Positions 11,916-17,141 of a stretch of 64,000 nucleotides of DNA are shown piece by piece. The translations under genes and the position numbers were made by a program. Below the pieces are notes generated by a model, which searched no databases, was not told the DNA's origin, and worked only from the letters and a program-made list of their open reading frames with translations. Each line of letters starts with the position of its first letter. The first letter of the stretch is position 1. The stretch spans positions 64,001-128,000 of the forward strand of contig JBKAGE010000037.1 of the NCBI GenBank assembly GCA_046290225.1, read 5' to 3'. Source of the stretch: Bradymonadia bacterium (GTDB lineage Bacteria > Myxococcota_A > Bradymonadia > UBA7976 > UBA1532).

Positions 11916-12740
11916 ATGACCGTGACACAACGGCTGATCTCCCCACTTCTCCTCGGCGCACTCGCGCTTCTCCCTGCGTGCAAGGGCGACGCGCCCACGC
12001 CACCCGCTGGCGCTCAGAAGAGCGCCAAGGGTGCTCAGAAGGGCACCCCGGCGGTGCCCAACCTGGGCAAGCCCGGTGACGGCTTCGACCTGCCCAAGAT
12101 GCGGTCCAGCCTCGACGGCACCTGGATCATCAACCCCCAGTGGGGTCAGCGCATCGACGTGTGGCACCTCGACGGCAGCAAGGCGAAGCTGCTGCGTGGG
12201 GCTCTGGAGCGCGAGGTGGACGCGCTGGTCGACCTGCACGCCCCCTGTCGGATCCGCTTCACCACCAAGGGGGTCAAAGGCGGACCAGACTTCAGCTGGA
12301 CACGTAACTTCGTGCTCGAAGAGGGCAAATTGTTCGCAGGCCAGGCAGCTACGGGCTTGATCCAGGGCGATCGCACCATCGTCTGCGGGCGCCAGGGCAC
12401 CTTCATCAAGCAAGGCGATCAATGCGCCTATCACCCGATGCTCAAGCCCGGGGCCAAAAAGAACGCCAAGGTCCCTGCACCTGTGGCCGCGAAGTGCAGC
12501 CTCGAGGGTCAGTCCTTCGAGGCCCAGGCAGGCAAGGTGAAGGCGAAGCTCACCCGCCGCGGCGAGATCCTGGTGGCAGACGCGGTCCGACCTCTGGAGA
12601 AGATGCCGAGCTTCGAGGCTGCGAAGACGCGCTTCAGGCAAGCAAGCATGCGCCGACCCGGTGAAGCCCTGGAGCCGATCAAGGGCAGGGTGGAAGACAT
12701 GAAGCCGCCGACCCCCGCACCGAGCAGTCAACCGCAATGA
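11916..12740 (+). CDS. Lipoprotein of unknown function
   Basis: MTVTQRLISPLLLGALALLPAC lipobox; basic, with several Cys. Confidence 0.72.
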   Translation: MTVTQRLISPLLLGALALLPACKGDAPTPPAGAQKSAKGAQKGTPAVPNLGKPGDGFDLPKMRSSLDGTWIINPQWGQRIDVWHLDGSKAKLLRGALEREVDALVDLHAPCRIRFTTKGVKGGPDFSWTRNFVLEEGKLFAGQAATGLIQGDRTIVCGRQGTFIKQGDQCAYHPMLKPGAKKNAKVPAPVAAKCSLEGQSFEAQAGKVKAKLTRRGEILVADAVRPLEKMPSFEAAKTRFRQASMRRPGEALEPIKGRVEDMKPPTPAPSSQPQ

Positions 12741-12892
12741 CGGCCATTCTTCGGGCCATCTGAGCACCCCCGATACATCGTCAGTTGCAGGTGCCCTTCC
12801 GCCGAATCGTCGGAGCACATCTAAAAAAGCTGACAGCGCCCTTCGTGTCCACTAGACACATACTATCGTTCACACACGAAGAGAGCATCCTC

Positions 12893-13249
12893 ATGCGCAT
12901 CCTCGTCGCTGGCGCTGTCGGTTGGACTGATCGCGAAGTCATTCATCGTGAGCTGAGTTGTTGCCCTGAGGCCACCCACATCATCACGGGTGATGCTCCG
13001 GGGGCTGACGCCCTCGCCGAAGAGGTGGGGCAAGGCCTCGGCTTCAGCGTGCAGCGGATGCACAAAAACAAGAAGGATTATGAGCGGTATGGCCGCGGCG
13101 CATGGAAAGGGCTCAATGAGCGCATGCTGGCTCAAGGGCCTGATCGAGTGCTCATTTTCCACCCGGCCATCGAGAAGAGCCGCGGCAGCAAGCACATGGG
13201 CAAGATCGCAGAAGCAGCGGGGGTAGAGGTGCAGGTGTTCAGCGGCTGA
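12893..13249 (+). CDS. SLOG-superfamily protein (DUF2493/YspA-like)
   Basis: MRILVAG, IITGDAPGADALAE, NERML, VLIFH and SRGSKHM motifs; convergent with the tRNA array. Confidence 0.8.
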   Translation: MRILVAGAVGWTDREVIHRELSCCPEATHIITGDAPGADALAEEVGQGLGFSVQRMHKNKKDYERYGRGAWKGLNERMLAQGPDRVLIFHPAIEKSRGSKHMGKIAEAAGVEVQVFSG

Positions 13250-13269
13250 TCACCTGCACCTCTACGTCG

Positions 13270-13353
13270 TACCGGAGGTCGGAGTCGAACCGACAAGGCC
13301 ATCACAGCCAACCTGGTTTGAGCAGGCCGCGTTTACCATTTCGCCACTCCGGC
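13270..13353 (-). tRNA. tRNA-Leu(CAA), class II
   Basis: Acceptor GCCGGAG/CTCCGGT, A73; anticodon arm GCCTG-CTCAAAC-CAGGT; long V arm; T arm GTCGG-TTCGACT-CCGAC. Confidence 0.93.
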
Positions 13354-13406
13354 AAAAGACACCTCGCCTCTCTGAGAGAGACGAGGCGCCCCGCCCCTGA
13401 TCGTGC

Positions 13407-13467
13407 ACGCCATGGATGAGGCTCGAACTGACACAGCCAGATCGTGCTCTGCACTCGCCACGGCGCA
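13407..13467 (-). pseudogene. Possible degenerate tRNA remnant (acceptor plus T-arm-like)
   Basis: GCCGTGG...CCATGGC outer stem and imperfect GTCAG-TTCGAGC-CTCAT arm; no anticodon arm. Confidence 0.35.
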
Positions 13468-13471
13468 TATG

Positions 13472-13558
13472 CGGAAGAGGAGGGAGTCGAACCCCCAAGG
13501 CTTTTCACAGCTCGACCGGGTTCAAACCGGCTGCCGTCACCTGTCGGCTTGCTCTTCC
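13472..13558 (-). tRNA. tRNA-Ser(UGA), class II
   Basis: Acceptor GGAAGAG/CTCTTCC, G73; GCCGG-TTTGAAC-CCGGT; T loop TTCGACT; C at position 8. Confidence 0.92.
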
Positions 13559-13585
13559 AGTTGGGCTACGGTGCTCCGGCTTTTG

Positions 13586-13756
13586 GCTCCGGTGCTCCGG
13601 CCTCATCGCCCGCCATCAGGGCGGCGATCTGGCGCCCAGATGCGGCGCTCCGATCCTCGACGTAGCCTCTGGCTACGCCTGCGGTCGGAACACCACATCT
13701 GAACACCACCTCACCACCCTGCTGACGAGCGCTGCGACCTCCGCACCTCCGCGTGC
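13586..13756 (-). repeat. Structured hairpin repeat, copy A
   Basis: Minus strand reads CGGAGG...long G.T-rich hairpin...CCGCAGGCGTAGCCAGAGGCTACGTCGAGG...GCCGGAGCACCGGAGC; motifs shared with copies B and C. Confidence 0.85.
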
Positions 13757-13832
13757 CCGGCCTGATGTTGGCTCCAGTTTTGTGTTGCTGGAGCCCACGT
13801 TAATCTGGGCCCGTGGACCCTTTGGCTTGTCG

Positions 13833-13917
13833 TGGATGGGGAGGGAATCGAACCCCCGGGGTGCGTACGCACGGCGGGACTACAAGCCGCCCCGGCCCCC
13901 TACCGGTCTACCCATCC
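13833..13917 (-). tRNA. tRNA-Tyr(GUA), class II, atypical (C31.C39 mismatch, G37)
   Basis: Acceptor GGATGGG/CCCATCC, A73; GCGGC-TTGTAGT-CCCGC; V arm GTGCGTACGCAC; T loop TTCGATT. Confidence 0.82.
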
Positions 13918-14016
13918 AAAAATGTTCGCCCACAGGGGCTCGGCAGCTCGTCGATGGGTGAGCACCGCGCATGTGCACTCGATCACCAACCAGACGCTGA
14001 GCCCCTGGGCAAAATG

Positions 14017-14101
14017 TGGACAGGGAGGGAGTCGAACCCACGGGGTGCGTACGCACAGCGGATTTACAGTCCGCTCCGGCCCCCCACCGGACTACCTGTC
14101 C
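14017..14101 (-). tRNA. tRNA-Tyr(GUA), class II
   Basis: Acceptor GGACAGG/CCTGTCC, A73; GCGGA-CTGTAAA-TCCGC; V arm GTGCGTACGCAC; one U.U mismatch in the T stem. Confidence 0.88.
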
Positions 14102-14149
14102 AAAAGGCGCTCATTCACAGGGGTCGAATGACCCCACTCGAACCCAAAG

Positions 14150-14326
14150 CACATATGTACTTGCCCCGCGGAGGCTCTGGGGCTCGGTGGCTGGCCGGTG
14201 AGTGAGTGTGCAGTCGTGGTGGCAAAAGCGCAGGCGTGGCCGGAGGCCCCGTCGAGCATTTTGACGCCGCGAAAGTACGCTCAATCGCCGGCCAGACGCC
14301 GGGCCCCAGAGCCGGAGCGCCGGAGC
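14150..14326 (+). repeat. Structured hairpin repeat, copy B
   Basis: CACATATGTACTTGCCCCGCGGAGGC...hairpin...GCGCAGGCGTGGCCGGAGGCCCCGTCGAGC...GCCGGAGCGCCGGAGC. Confidence 0.85.
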
Positions 14327-14334
14327 AAAAAGTG

Positions 14335-14422
14335 CGGAGGCGGAGGGATTCGAACCCCCACGACCCTTGCGGGCCCTACCAAGGTAGCAACCTGGCCTCT
14401 TCACCAATTTGAGTACGCCTCC
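14335..14422 (-). tRNA. tRNA-Ser(GCU), class II
   Basis: Acceptor GGAGGCG/CGCCTCC, G73; CCAGG-TTGCTAC-CTTGG; V arm GGCCC-GCAA-GGGTC. Confidence 0.93.
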
Positions 14423-14449
14423 ACACAAGGCTGAGCTGTCACGCATCAG

Positions 14450-14534
14450 TGCCGCGAGCCGGATTCGAACCGGCACGACCAAAGGCGGTCCCCGGGCTCT
14501 CAACCCGGTGTGTCTTCCGTTCCACCACCACGGC
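14450..14534 (-). tRNA. tRNA-Leu(GAG), class II
   Basis: Acceptor GCCGTGG/TCGCGGC, A73; CCGGG-TTGAGAG-CCCGG; V arm GACC..GGTC; GCCGG-TTCGAAT-CCGGC. Confidence 0.92.
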
Positions 14535-14543
14535 AAAAATCAG

Positions 14544-14630
14544 CGGAAGAGGAGGGAGTCGAACCCCCAAGGCCCTTTCGAGCTCACCCGTATTCGAAAC
14601 GGGCGCCATCACCCATTGGCTTGCTCTTCC
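14544..14630 (-). tRNA. tRNA-Ser(CGA), class II
   Basis: Acceptor GGAAGAG/CTCTTCC, G73; CCCGT-TTCGAAT-ACGGG; close paralog of Ser(UGA); C8. Confidence 0.92.
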
Positions 14631-14663
14631 GTATGGCTCCAGAGCTTCAGCCATGGAGCACTG

Positions 14664-14748
14664 TGGACAAGGAGAGAGTCGAACTCCCGAGGTGCGTACG
14701 CACGACGCGTTTACAGCGCGCTCCGGTCCCCTACCGGCCTACCTGTCC
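14664..14748 (-). tRNA. tRNA-Tyr(GUA), class II
   Basis: Acceptor GGACAGG/CTTGTCC, A73; GCGCG-CTGTAAA-CGCGT; V arm GTGCGTACGCAC. Confidence 0.88.
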
Positions 14749-14756
14749 TCAAAATG

Positions 14757-14845
14757 CGGAAGCGGCGGGAGTCGAACCCGCAGTGCCTTTCACGGCACAC
14801 CTGTTTTCCGGACAGGCGCGGCGAACCGATATCCGCCTCGCTTCC
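14757..14845 (-). tRNA. tRNA-Ser(GGA), class II, atypical (A8, C33)
   Basis: Acceptor GGAAGCG/CGCTTCC, G73; CCTGT-CCGGAAA-ACAGG; V arm GTGCC-GTGAAA-GGCAC; all stems perfectly paired. Confidence 0.87.
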
Positions 14846-14983
14846 AAACATCACACACATGTATCCCACCAGCATGCCGACGCAATACAACCATCTCATC
14901 AACACGCAACATGAAGACGCGATACACACGTGTATCAAACGGCACGCACCTACCATCGCCGCCAGAGATCAGAAGTCAGGAAG

Positions 14984-15067
14984 TGCCCGGGGTGAGATTC
15001 GAACTCACACGTCCTCACGGACACCGGCTTCTGAGGCCGGCGCGTCTACCAGTTCCGCCACCCGGGC
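14984..15067 (-). tRNA. tRNA-Leu(CAG), class II; first gene of the array
   Basis: Acceptor GCCCGGG/CCCGGGC, A73; CCGGC-CTCAGAA-GCCGG; V arm GTCC-GTGA-GGAC. Confidence 0.95.
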
Positions 15068-15174
15068 ATATGGATCCCCAGCGACGATGGCAGGCACGGC
15101 ACATCGTGAGCACACACCCACAATGCTTTTATTTTCTAAGGCTTATGTGCCCTCACGAGCATCAACCGAGGCAC

Positions 15175-15209
15175 AAAAAAAGCCCCTCGGCAGATGCCTG
15201 AGGGGCTTT
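15175..15209 (-). terminator. Intrinsic terminator (attenuator) upstream of the tRNA array
   Basis: AAAGCCCCTC-AGGCATCTGCC-GAGGGGC followed by T7. Confidence 0.92.
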
Positions 15210-15247
15210 CGTGCGAAGACCGGCAGGCCTCAGCTCGAACTCCCCTC
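15200..15247 (-). promoter_or_regulatory. Antiterminator hairpin overlapping the leader stop codon and the terminator 5' arm
   Basis: GAGGGGAGTTCGAGCTGAGGCC-TGCC-GGTCTTCGCACGAAAGCCCCTC: 18 of 22 positions pair (2 are G.U), sequestering the terminator's AAAGCCCCTC arm. Confidence 0.82.
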
Positions 15248-15337
15248 GAGGGCACTCAGAAGCAACGACGCGCAATAAGACAGGCGCAAGTCGAGGCTTG
15301 AGAGGCGAGAGTTGGAGGTGTTCGAGATGAAGTGCAT
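15230..15337 (-). CDS. Ser/Leu/Tyr-rich leader peptide, 35 aa (MHFISNTSNSRLSSLDLRLSYCASLLLSALEGSSS)
   Basis: AAGGGA RBS 8 nt before the ATG; 11 Ser, 8 Leu and 1 Tyr codons; lies between the promoter and terminator; below the ORF-track size cut-off. Confidence 0.85.
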   Translation of the reverse strand: MHFISNTSNSRLSSLDLRLSYCASLLLSALEGSSS

Positions 15338-15365
15338 GAGAACTATCCCTTGTTGAGTGACTCGA

Positions 15366-15394
15366 AAGGTAGCGGCATAGTCTGACTGTGTCAA
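15366..15394 (-). promoter_or_regulatory. Sigma70-type promoter of the leader/tRNA operon
   Basis: TTGACA-N17-TACCTT with an A/T-rich UP-like tract upstream; predicted start ~15359. Confidence 0.85.
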
Positions 15395-15477
15395 AGACAT
15401 TTTTCACATGACAGTCATTTTTCTATTTCGGCCCACTCTGAGCACACCGACAGTCAGCCACTCGGGCTGTAGTATCC

Positions 15478-15996
15478 TCAGGGGACCCATATCTCCTCCC
15501 GGATCGCCCAGCGCTCGTGATCACGCCATGCACCATCCAAAAAGAGGTAGCTCTTGGAGTAGCCCTCACGCTCGAAGCCCACCCGCTTCACGAGCTGAAT
15601 CGATCGCATGTTCTCGGGCCGGATGTTGGCCTCAAGACGGTGCAAGCCGATGCGAGAAAACGCCCACTCCAGACAGCTGTGCATCCCCTCCTCCATCTTC
15701 CCTGAACCCGCATGGGGCAAGAAGGCGCCGTAACCCATGTACGCGCTGCGGAACAGGCCCATGGAGATCTGGCTGAGGTTGAACACCCCCGCGGGCTCCC
15801 CTGAGGCCTGATCGATCAACACAAGAGTGCGAAAGGCATCGCTCTGCCGATCGATGAGCAGCTGGAACGCCTCTACCGTACGCGCCGTAGAAAACCAGGG
15901 CCCGTGCAGGGAGACACTGGCCTGCGCCGCCGCGATGAACGCCATCTCGTCTTCAGGCACCAATGGTCGGAGTAGAGTTCTTGCGCTCGAGATCAA
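15478..15996 (-). CDS. RimJ/RimL-family GNAT N-acetyltransferase (second paralog)
   Basis: FRSAYMGY...GSGKMEEG, LHRLEANIRPENMRS and GFEREGYSKSYL.LDGAWRDH; TTG start 15996 after GGAGG. Confidence 0.88.
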   Translation of the reverse strand: MISSARTLLRPLVPEDEMAFIAAAQASVSLHGPWFSTARTVEAFQLLIDRQSDAFRTLVLIDQASGEPAGVFNLSQISMGLFRSAYMGYGAFLPHAGSGKMEEGMHSCLEWAFSRIGLHRLEANIRPENMRSIQLVKRVGFEREGYSKSYLFLDGAWRDHERWAIREEIWVP

Positions 15997-16118
15997 ATCT
16001 GCACCTCCTCGTGCGGTGTTCGCGACATATTCTATGCGCAATTGCGATGTCCTCCCCTTGCTCTTGATGCACGCCTGAGGCACAACCGTTCTCTTGAACA
16101 TCGCCCCCAGGAGCCCCC

Positions 16119-17141
16119 ATGAACGCCCCCGAGATTCGACATGACTGGACCCGTGGCGAGATCAGGGCCCTCTTCGATCTGCCCTTCAACGATCTGCTCT
16201 TTCGGGCTCAGAGCGCCCACCGGCGCCACTTCGATCCCAACCGGGTACAGCTGAGCACCCTGCTCAGCATCAAGACCGGCTCTTGCCCCGAAGACTGCGC
16301 CTACTGCCCTCAGAGCGCGCGGTACGACACCGGCCTCGAGTCCGAGCGGCTGATGCCTCTCGAAGAGGTGCTCCAGCGGGCCCAGGCGGCCAAGGATGCA
16401 GGGGCCACGCGGTTCTGCATGGGGGCCGCCTGGCGCAACCCCAAGGATCGAGACCTCGACAAGGTCTGCGACATGGTCGTCGGTGTGCGTAAGCTCGGGC
16501 TCGAGACCTGCGTCACTCTGGGCATGCTCAAAGAGACACAGGCGAGACGCCTCAAAGAGGCAGGCCTGGACTACTACAACCACAACATCGACACCGATCC
16601 CGAGATGTACGGTGACATCATCACCACCCGCACCTTTCAGGATCGACTCGACACCCTTGAGCACGTGCGCGAAGCGGGCATGAAGGTGTGTTGCGGCGGC
16701 ATCGTGGGTATGGGCGAGAGCCGCGATCAGCGCGCGGGCATGCTGCTCACCCTGGCCAACATGCCCAGCCACCCCGAGAGCGTGCCCATCAACATGCTGG
16801 TTCAGGTCGAGGGCACTCCGCTGCACGGATCCGACAGCCTCGATCCACTGGAGTTCATCCGCACCATCGCCGTGGCGCGTATCCTGATGCCTCGATCGAG
16901 GGTCCGGCTCTCCGCTGGCCGTCGCCAGATGGACGACAGCACTCAGGCCTTGTGCTTCTTCGCCGGCGCAAACTCCATCTTCTATGGCGATCAGCTGCTC
17001 ACCACGGGCAACCCCGACGTGATCCGTGATCAGACCCTCCTCACCCGCCTGGGCATCGAAGCCGACGGCATGCCCACCGATGATGTAGAGCCGCCCACCT
17101 CAGTACACCCCGGCCACTGCCCCATCGAGGACCTGCCTTGA
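16119..17141 (+). CDS. bioB: Biotin synthase
   Basis: [17 protein letters not shown] radical-SAM motif, [25 protein letters not shown]. Confidence 0.97.

Follow-up and report, generated by a model that had tools for sequence, protein, structure and literature searches.

In a Bradymonadia bacterium, an operon of ten accessory tRNA genes for serine, leucine and tyrosine (Ser/Leu/Tyr) appears to be gated by a ribosome-mediated leader-peptide transcription attenuator, which would match the supply of these tRNAs to the decoding demand; we give this reading a probability of about 0.75. The operon lies in the window G000:C37:64001-128000, that is, the whole stretch of 64,000 nucleotides (nt) that was analysed (G is the label of a genome, G000 being the studied one, of 8.58 Mb, and C stands for contig). 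Matching switches stand before the other blocks of spare tRNA genes in the same genome, which suggests that each block is probably made only when its codons are read slowly. The tRNA genes were called with ARAGORN, a whole-genome search with RF00005 served as a second method, and the folding energies were calculated with RNAfold.

A leader written in the codons of the downstream tRNAs

On the minus strand, the array is preceded by a short open reading frame (ORF) with a Shine-Dalgarno-like (SD) motif and a start codon, by codons that match the array, by a terminator, and by an alternative antiterminator that uses the 5' arm of this terminator (coordinates in Table 1). These are the sequence features that define a leader-peptide attenuator. 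What does not fit the usual definition is the nature of the gated genes, which are ten tRNA genes and not genes of biosynthesis, transport or aminoacyl-tRNA synthetases.

The leader peptide, MHFISNTSNSRLSSLDLRLSYCASLLLSALEGSSS, contains 11 Ser, 8 Leu and 1 Tyr, which amounts to 20 of the 35 codons, or 20/34 after the start. The count of 20 holds for the frame set by the SD motif and the ATG, against 11 at most in the other frames (six frames compared). In a background of 52,252 small ORFs collected over the whole genome (ATG or GTG start, 25-70 codons), this share is reached by six ORFs, all of which are poly-Ser runs with no T-run downstream. The leader is itself outside this set because its frame extends further upstream, without a stop, as far as an ATG at 15400 that lies ahead of the promoter.

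The terminator hairpin has a predicted energy of -19.0 kcal/mol for its 25-nt core and of -25.3 kcal/mol in a 50-nt frame; a bulged A in the stem is the reason why a simple terminator scan misses it. The competing antiterminator, in which 15251-15242 pairs with 15205-15197 around the hairpin 15239-15208, totals -32.9 kcal/mol. As a whole, the 211-nt leader folds better than 200 out of 200 shuffled sequences (z = -3.67).

Upstream of the ORF, the TTGACA-N17-TACCTT pair is the sole match to TTGAC..N17..TA on the minus strand between 13200 and 15420 (regular-expression search). A consensus promoter scan of 12800-15900 lists 0 promoter-like sites; it misses this one because TACCTT fits TATAAT at only three positions out of six. 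We regard the promoter as plausible but weak, the site having been picked by eye and judged by the E. coli rule. The promoter with its 17-nt spacer, the 35-codon ORF with 20 Ser/Leu/Tyr codons, the terminator with its U7 tract and the antiterminator had all been put forward in a first-pass annotation of the window, and they hold up when recounted and refolded, the antiterminator placed there at 15247-15200 being essentially the pairing given above.

A marine-metagenome contig (192 nt) shows two differences in the ORF, at 15281 and 15248, both at third positions of Leu codons; in the predicted fold, the difference at 15248 falls within segment 2 (the 5' arm of the antiterminator), at a bulged, unpaired position. 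These third-position differences may be taken as weak support for the attenuator. When sequencing runs that contain the region 13000-16200 were looked for, no RNA run was listed, and the four DNA runs proved to be marine-metagenome contigs that cover it in fragments.

How the attenuator would work

In the mechanism that we propose, transcription would start about 22 nt before the leader ORF. If translation is smooth, the ribosome would reach the last codons or the stop and cover segment 2; the GC-rich terminator would then form, and transcription would end at the U7 tract. Codons 2-25 include 13 Ser/Leu/Tyr codons; if the ribosome stalls at one of these, upstream of segment 2, this segment would remain free and pair with the 5' arm of the terminator (segment 3) before the 3' arm is made, and the polymerase would read into the ten tRNA genes. 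The extra tRNAs would relieve the stall, which would make the loop self-regulating. The trigger would be a shortage of decoding-competent Ser, Leu or Tyr tRNA; we favour tRNA supply as the signal because the gated genes are tRNAs, and because the amino acids are grouped by array and not by pathway.

This scheme was modelled with a ribosome whose footprint was assumed to be -15 to +12 nt around the A-site codon. For transcripts cut off at the terminator loop, the predicted upstream pairing of segment 3 is about 0.8 with the ribosome at codons 2-26, and 0.4-0.6 with the A site anywhere from about codon 27 to the stop. The three other leaders described in the next section behave alike in this truncated-transcript masking model.

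Matching leaders before the other arrays

Three other accessory arrays are found in the same genome: Val/Arg/Lys/Ile on C20 (this array probably continues on C24), Gln/Glu/Asp/Phe on C42 and Thr/Gly/Ala on C79. At the Rfam gathering score, 9/9 of the tRNAs are confirmed on C20 (plus 2/2 on C24), 5/7 on C42 and 7/7 on C79. A TTGAC-N17-TA site stands upstream of all arrays, together with an SD-like motif, a short ORF and a terminator. The leader peptides of the three other arrays are MYVQNTIVNVRLKRRVKSVRRLRVIRVRREGGGTF, MFCFFDTDVLECALFQQEQERFEQDIEGGNLA and FFYTTHIIDVAALSATRRTDAFEATAGLCVEGPSDAGNAQASWLRAGKGIGLIGGVTP (GTG start).

The amino acids of the leader's own array account for 20/34, 17/31, 24/57 and 20/34 residues in the four leaders. 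Cross-array values are all 11 or less, and the own set is the row maximum in 4/4 leaders; matching at the level of codons and anticodons gives the same outcome as matching at the level of amino acids. The frame set by the SD motif and the start codon has the highest own share of the six frames in all four cases. Among the 52,252 small ORFs, those that reach the share of the leader number 6 for Ser/Leu/Tyr, 1 for Gln/Glu/Asp/Phe, 2 for Val/Arg/Lys/Ile and 1,260 for Thr/Gly/Ala.

The four leaders are also built alike. Each of them has a G-rich segment 2, located 4-19 nt ahead of the stop, whose pairing partner is the 5' arm of the terminator; the G-rich stretches are CCUCGAGGGG, GAGGGGGGG, GGAGGGGU... 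and GGAGGUGG. In all four, the antiterminator encloses a spacer hairpin that stands astride the stop codon, the antiterminator composite comes to -31 to -35 kcal/mol and the terminator to -16 to -26 kcal/mol, and the T-run lies 48-60 nt past the stop. The housekeeping tRNA loci that we inspected have a promoter directly upstream, with no ORF-plus-terminator module. When five leader regions (those of the four arrays and that of the EF-Tu module described below) are compared by BLAST with their own genome, each matches only itself, which means that their paralogy rests on the common architecture and on short motifs only.

A further tRNA candidate, C42:38123-38236, was downgraded: it has no U tract, there is a protein gene inside, and only a tRNA-Pro passes Rfam. 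The locus (C42:38123-39797) starts with a 37-codon ORF rich in Cys, Pro, His and Met, which is followed by a hairpin with no U tract; downstream come tRNA-like pieces called by ARAGORN only, a gene for an inosine-uridine nucleoside hydrolase, and a solid tRNA-Pro(GGG).

A scan blind to tRNAs, a trp leader and an EF-Tu module

The same build can be searched for in a manner that ignores tRNAs. Starting from 1,211 terminator-like hairpins, and retaining those with a short ORF that ends 12-45 nt upstream and of which the last 22 nt are able to pair with the 5' arm of the terminator, the scan yields 46 candidates. Those with a tRNA within 600 nt downstream are exactly the four tRNA-array leaders.

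The scan also returns a trp leader, MNTLLTHADVIEAASKGSWWWWISSEGVRVSG, which precedes trpE-trpG-trpD (G000:C79:226969 region, minus strand) and has a terminator as well as four Trp codons in a row (SWWWWISS). The recovery of this classical leader indicates that the organism uses leader-peptide attenuation, and the tRNA leaders are built alike. Together with the second copies of the anticodons (see below) and the three matched arrays, the trp leader lends strong in silico support to the proposal of the first-pass annotation that an attenuator may gate a backup tRNA operon.

The trp leader also bears on the nature of the signal. The same device may sense starvation for Ser, Leu or Tyr, that is uncharged tRNA, and not a shortage of tRNA. 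Slow decoding of the cognate codons cannot distinguish the two signals, and this genome does have a classical leader of the starvation-sensing kind. We nevertheless regard starvation as an unlikely trigger: the gated genes are tRNAs, and more tRNA is no cure for a missing amino acid, while the leaders group amino acids by the content of the array and not by biosynthetic pathway.

A fifth copy of the module, missed by the scan, stands 249 nt before the ATG of a second EF-Tu gene (C57:43020-44210), at a locus outside the window (C57:43020-44700). This copy comprises a promoter of its own, a leader of 39 codons, a G-rich segment, a spacer hairpin and a terminator. This second EF-Tu is 68% identical to the EF-Tu encoded within the tRNA array of a relative, against 56% for the housekeeping tuf product. 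Its leader, MYRRFSTLVDQCLCASQLLSVSLLSSSDLLLDPEGGGLG, is rich in Ser, Leu and Tyr (18/38), and its promoter region aligns with that of the Ser/Leu/Tyr array.

The first-pass annotation had proposed that the trigger is the loss of, or damage to, tRNAs with a long variable arm (class II). That the array holds class II tRNAs only, and that a second Ser/Leu/Tyr-rich leader with an alignable promoter region gates an EF-Tu paralogue, could be read in this sense. We find a response specific to class II tRNAs highly unlikely, and this part of the annotation is not upheld: the existence of the parallel Val/Arg/Lys/Ile, Gln/Glu/Asp/Phe and Thr/Gly/Ala modules means that the grouping needs no class II logic, the class II content of this array being one partition among others, and there is no sequence hint of a nuclease specific to class II.

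It could also be argued that there is no switch, that the ORF is untranslated or fortuitous, that the hairpin is the ordinary terminator of the upstream acetyltransferase gene, and that the array is transcribed from elsewhere. A GNAT gene (15478-16101) does lie upstream of the leader on the same strand, the -10 hexamer is weak, and equilibrium folding favours the terminator. On the other hand, the same combination of ORF and terminator is found at four other loci, among different neighbours, the composition matches the array in 4/4 cases, and only in the SD/ATG frame, and there is no other TTGAC-type site before or inside the array, so that we give almost no credit to this explanation. As for the independent promoter that the first-pass annotation had envisaged between 15175 and 15067, the regular-expression search (13200-15420, minus strand) detects no second TTGAC-type site between the terminator and the array or within the array. 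This pattern speaks for an array that may be co-transcribed with its leader.

A second, divergent set of tRNAs

The genome contains 96 tRNA genes according to ARAGORN and 90 according to RF00005, while the RF00005 counts are 44-57 in 5/5 of the genomes of the same family that were examined; no second tRNA set was found in any of these five (RF00005). All 8 distinct anticodons of the Ser/Leu/Tyr array are also present elsewhere in the genome. The housekeeping copies are four Ser genes beside serS (C35), scattered Leu genes, and a Tyr gene in a tuf-type cluster (C78). The array copies and the housekeeping copies are only 57-81% identical, and the anticodon loop, outside the anticodon itself, differs from that of the housekeeping copy in 7/9 comparisons for this array and in 23/33 over all arrays. 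With respect to an encoded CCA, array and housekeeping genes are alike. From these comparisons, the Ser/Leu/Tyr array reads as one of the modules into which a second tRNA set, divergent in sequence, is split by amino acid.

The divergence leads to a broader idea, which is tentative and to which we attach little weight. The divergent tRNA modules and the divergent EF-Tu could form an attenuator-gated translation kit, each part of which would be opened when ribosomes stall at its own codons; such a kit would insure or immunise the cell against toxins that cut or inactivate tRNAs, or against phage-induced loss of tRNA. If this were true, the divergent bodies and anticodon loops (23/33) would let the spare tRNAs escape what destroyed the housekeeping pool.

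Phage records give single-tRNA matches only, and 0/58 records cover at least 80% of the array. An exact pattern derived from the variable arm of the array's Tyr tRNA has 0 viral matches; its one metagenome match lies in coding DNA that contains no tRNA, and was discarded as fortuitous.

Other unusual tRNA genes are found in this genome. At G000:C34:374632-375086, RF00005 gives three end-to-end matches (47-52 bits) of 107-116 nt that ARAGORN does not call; each has an insertion of about 35-45 nt of common sequence in the anticodon region, and they are located between a sigma-54-like TGGCACG-N4-CTGCT site upstream and two tRNA-Pro genes downstream. An accessory Asn/His pair (G000:C44:41225-41498) has a sigma-54-like site, TGGCACGCCCTCTGCT, upstream in place of the leader module, which suggests that there may be a second control mode for spare tRNAs. 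Last, a 73-nt tRNA with the anticodon CTA (G000:C14:27995-28067; 'Pyl' for ARAGORN, 65 bits with RF00005) is a candidate amber-reading tRNA.

Related genomes and giant arrays

The first-pass annotation had suggested looking for a conserved leader in related genomes; no orthologous leader was found in the other genomes searched. BLAST of the leader plus the first tRNA against 40 relatives returns single tRNA-Leu genes only. Synteny was tried with the upstream GNAT gene and proved useless: the best of its 561 relatives are 41-50% identical and belong to other phyla.

A sample of 400 genomes of the phylum, in which two candidates were scored per genome, contains giant single arrays in three genomes: G203 and G175, which belong to one genus, and G173. 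These arrays have 35-37 tRNAs (G203, G175) and at least 27 (G173), and their Ser tRNAs resemble those of the Ser/Leu/Tyr array at 78-82%. Each is headed by a promoter-like site, an ORF of 100 (G203), 108 (G175) or 61 (G173) codons, and a terminator. The design of segment 2 and terminator is the same in G175 and G173 as in the studied genome, and the ribosome-binding region of the G175 leader shares CTCTGGAGCCC with that of the Thr/Gly/Ala leader.

The three giant-array leaders each contain all 20 amino acids, which is the case for 101/16,120 random ORFs of 50-70 codons and for 383/5,352 of 95-115 codons. Whole arrays pair with leaders that contain all amino acids, and sorted sub-arrays pair with sorted leaders. 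This rule is not absolute: in G286, an array of 8 tRNAs is preceded by a leader without enrichment (26/59, the background mean being 0.38). A second copy of the G286 module, 81% identical over 156 nt, precedes Tad pilus genes and not tRNAs: it lies upstream of TadG/TadE-like genes (G286:C1:2490000-2501000), with no tRNA in 11 kb.

These leaders raise the question of whether the device senses translation stress in general, independently of the codons, for instance the stress caused by ribosome-targeting antibiotics, in which case any slow translation of the leader would open the array. Leaders with all 20 amino acids on the giant arrays of G203, G175 and G173, and a G286 copy that precedes genes other than tRNAs, are what one would expect of such a sensor; in addition, the main text of the paper on the Anabaena L-array, a set of extra tRNA genes discussed below, states that antibiotics which target the ribosome, whatever their class, induce this array more than 100-fold (PMC8421152). 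General stress of this kind would be expected to open the proposed codon-matched switch as well, but a general sensor would leave four in-frame, array-matched leader skews in a single genome without a reason, and we think it distinctly unlikely.

With respect to ancestry, only 12/31 of the tRNAs in the arrays have a closer match among foreign L-array tRNAs than among the genome's own housekeeping copies. The origin of the arrays from the giant or L-arrays of Myxococcota is ambiguous on this evidence.

The giant arrays embed protein genes: an EF-Tu paralogue in G203 (pfam), a near-identical ORF in G175 (by eye), and in G173 a Ro60/TROVE-vWA protein (pfam) and an HNH-nuclease-like ORF (by eye). 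Several of their 'Leu' genes are only 75-76 nt long.

Observations that weigh against the attenuator

A number of observations weigh against an attenuator that responds to the codons of its own tRNAs. The first ones concern the folding. At equilibrium, the terminator dominates in the full leader (probability of at least 0.74) at 32 of the 35 ribosome positions, and also without a ribosome; the switch would have to be kinetic, as in other attenuators. In the truncated model, the antiterminator forms without any ribosome (0.82), which means that untranslated transcripts might read through. Seven of the last ten leader codons are Ser or Leu, and a stall there would mask the antiterminator arm and favour termination; this caveat was already present in the first-pass annotation, and it stands.

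Other points concern the sequence of the leaders and their distribution. The -10 hexamer, TACCTT, is weak. The enrichment of the Thr/Gly/Ala leader is modest, its share being reached by 1,260 of the 52,252 small ORFs. The coverage of all 7 Ser/Leu anticodons is unremarkable given the genomic codon usage (P about 0.25). The EF-Tu leader is rich in Ser, Leu and Tyr although EF-Tu is not specific to any amino acid. Last, there are the two G286 modules, one with a leader that is not enriched and the other without tRNAs, and the lack of an orthologous leader in the other genomes searched. Neither the coverage of the anticodons nor an excess of rare Ser codons (P about 0.056) was used as evidence.

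Comparison with known regulatory systems

The classical leader-peptide attenuators are trpL, hisL, leuL, thrL, ilvL, pheL and pheST. The device described here resembles them by its promoter, its short ORF made of regulatory codons, its mutually exclusive antiterminator and terminator, its U tract, and by the role that the position of the ribosome would play in the decision. It differs from them in four respects: tRNA genes take the place of biosynthetic or synthetase genes as the gated genes, a single leader is trivalent, for amino acids that are biosynthetically unrelated, the product is the very molecule whose shortage would be sensed, and several paralogous-looking modules divide the whole tRNA set between them. 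To our knowledge, the leader-peptide attenuators described so far all control genes of amino-acid biosynthesis, transport or aminoacyl-tRNA synthetases.

T-box riboswitches are similar in that a choice between terminator and antiterminator reports on the status of a tRNA. Unlike the present module, T-boxes bind uncharged tRNA directly, with no ORF involved, and they control synthetase and amino-acid genes; an Rfam scan of 12500-16200 gives no T-box match with E up to 1. In leaders that sense antibiotics or stalling, such as the erm leaders and the upstream ORF of topAI, a ribosome stalled on a short ORF remodels the RNA downstream, as we propose here. The topAI ORF has reportedly been studied as a stall-sensing leader. 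The erm and topAI leaders sense drugs through the nascent peptide or through general stalling, whereas the codons of the present leaders mirror the gated tRNAs.

The trn operon of Anabaena PCC 7120 is reportedly the subject of a study on a repressor, TrcR. According to the main text of the paper that describes it (PMC8421152), this operon, also referred to as the L-array of Anabaena sp. PCC 7120, is a silent or inducible subset of extra tRNAs that exists beside the housekeeping subset, as would be the case here. L-arrays, going by the same text (PMC8421152), bring isodecoder redundancy with no new anticodons and are patchy among relatives; our arrays have the first of these traits in common with them, and may have the second. 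Still on the basis of that text, Anabaena controls the operon at its promoter, by means of direct repeats and a repressor, whereas leader-peptide attenuators would be used here; and the L-array is one array, of up to 43 genes for mixed amino acids, whereas we find ten genes for three amino acids, in a genome with at least four operons of 7-11 genes. The strings leader, attenuat and terminator do not occur in the main text of that paper (PMC8421152), where the mechanisms of differential tRNA gene regulation are said, in 2021, to be largely unknown. Our search of full-text literature, which left aside the supplements of PMC8421152 (where Myxococcota L-arrays may be listed), brought up no paper in which tRNA genes are described as controlled by a leader-peptide attenuator.

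To judge from the sequences, a textbook attenuation mechanism would thus be aimed at a new target, tRNA genes. By being made of the codons of the tRNAs that it gates, a leader ORF would provide a direct feedback between supply and demand in decoding. The case is unusually clean, with four distinct leaders for four distinct arrays, a fifth copy on EF-Tu, and a trp leader as internal control. It suggests a way for long tRNA arrays, whose response to translation stress is known, to sense such stress without a protein regulator.

The ten-gene array and its surroundings

ARAGORN finds 10 genes in the array, in the order Leu-CAG, Ser-GGA, Tyr, Ser-CGA, Leu-GAG, Ser-GCT, Tyr, 'Thr-TGT', Ser-TGA and Leu-CAA, of which RF00005 matches nine in the whole-genome search, the sole miss being 13832-13917. 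The latter is a copy of the array Tyr(GTA) gene in which a C.C mismatch closes the anticodon loop; the loop is nominally of 9 nt, with G at position 37. This Tyr-like copy is probably defective, and would be either a pseudogene or an odd decoder. The earlier count of ten tRNA genes for exactly three amino acids is right in substance, subject to this one copy.

Table 1. Features of the Ser/Leu/Tyr leader and of the tRNA array (positions in the window).
Feature	Position	Strand	Basis
-35-like hexamer TTGACA	15389..15394	-	letters read; same layout before the other modules
-10-like hexamer TACCTT, 17-nt spacer from the -35	15366..15371	-	letters read; 3/6 positions match TATAAT
Shine-Dalgarno-like AAGGGA, 8 nt ahead of the ATG	15346..15351	-	letters read
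Leader ORF, 35 codons plus stop, peptide MHFISNTSNSRLSSLDLRLSYCASLLLSALEGSSS	15230..15337	-	ORF read and composition count
Segment 2, 5' arm of the antiterminator, CCUCGAGGGG, 10-19 nt ahead of the stop	15242..15251	-	predicted fold
Spacer hairpin across the stop codon, inside the antiterminator	15208..15239	-	predicted fold
Terminator hairpin GCCCCUCAGGC-AUCU-GCCGAGGGGC	15182..15206	-	predicted fold
Segment 3, 5' arm of the terminator, partner of segment 2	15197..15205	-	predicted fold
U7 tract	15175..15181	-	letters read
tRNA-Leu(CAG), begins 107 nt past the U tract	14983..15067	-	ARAGORN, RF00005
tRNA-Ser(GGA)	14756..14845	-	ARAGORN, RF00005
tRNA-Tyr(GTA)	14663..14748	-	ARAGORN, RF00005
tRNA-Ser(CGA)	14543..14630	-	ARAGORN, RF00005
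tRNA-Leu(GAG)	14449..14534	-	ARAGORN, RF00005
tRNA-Ser(GCT)	14334..14422	-	ARAGORN, RF00005
tRNA-Tyr(GTA), second copy	14016..14101	-	ARAGORN, RF00005
Tyr-like paralogue, aberrant anticodon stem-loop	13832..13917	-	ARAGORN ('Thr-TGT'); no RF00005 match
tRNA-Ser(TGA)	13471..13558	-	ARAGORN, RF00005
tRNA-Leu(CAA), last gene of the array	13269..13353	-	ARAGORN, RF00005
Long inverted repeat directly after the last tRNA, no U tract	13215..13262	-	letters read

The anticodon loop of tRNA-Ser(GGA), CCGGAAA, has C in place of the nearly universal U33. The repeat that follows the last tRNA is a perfect 15-bp inverted repeat, which overlaps the end of a convergent SLOG-like ORF (12785-13249) and is likely to mark the 3' boundary of the unit. 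The genes around the array are ordinary (GNAT acetyltransferase, bioB, bioA, nth, a DNA methylase and the SLOG-like gene), and none that looks phage-like was seen among them.

The two long spacers of the array, 14102-14333 and 13559-13831, contain copies of a repeat of about 170 nt that is dispersed in the genome, with 17 and 24 BLAST matches over the genome (68-82% identity). Several copies of this repeat are found at contig ends, including those of C20 and C24 where the Val/Arg/Lys/Ile array breaks.

Last, we note that AT-richer stretches with repeated motifs of the types TGTGTAT, ATACAC and TGCATTG occur at 15140-15068 and 14960-14850. Similar stretches are present just past the terminators at C42 and in G175, G203 and G286, ahead of the first tRNA; they could be processing sites or protein-binding sites.

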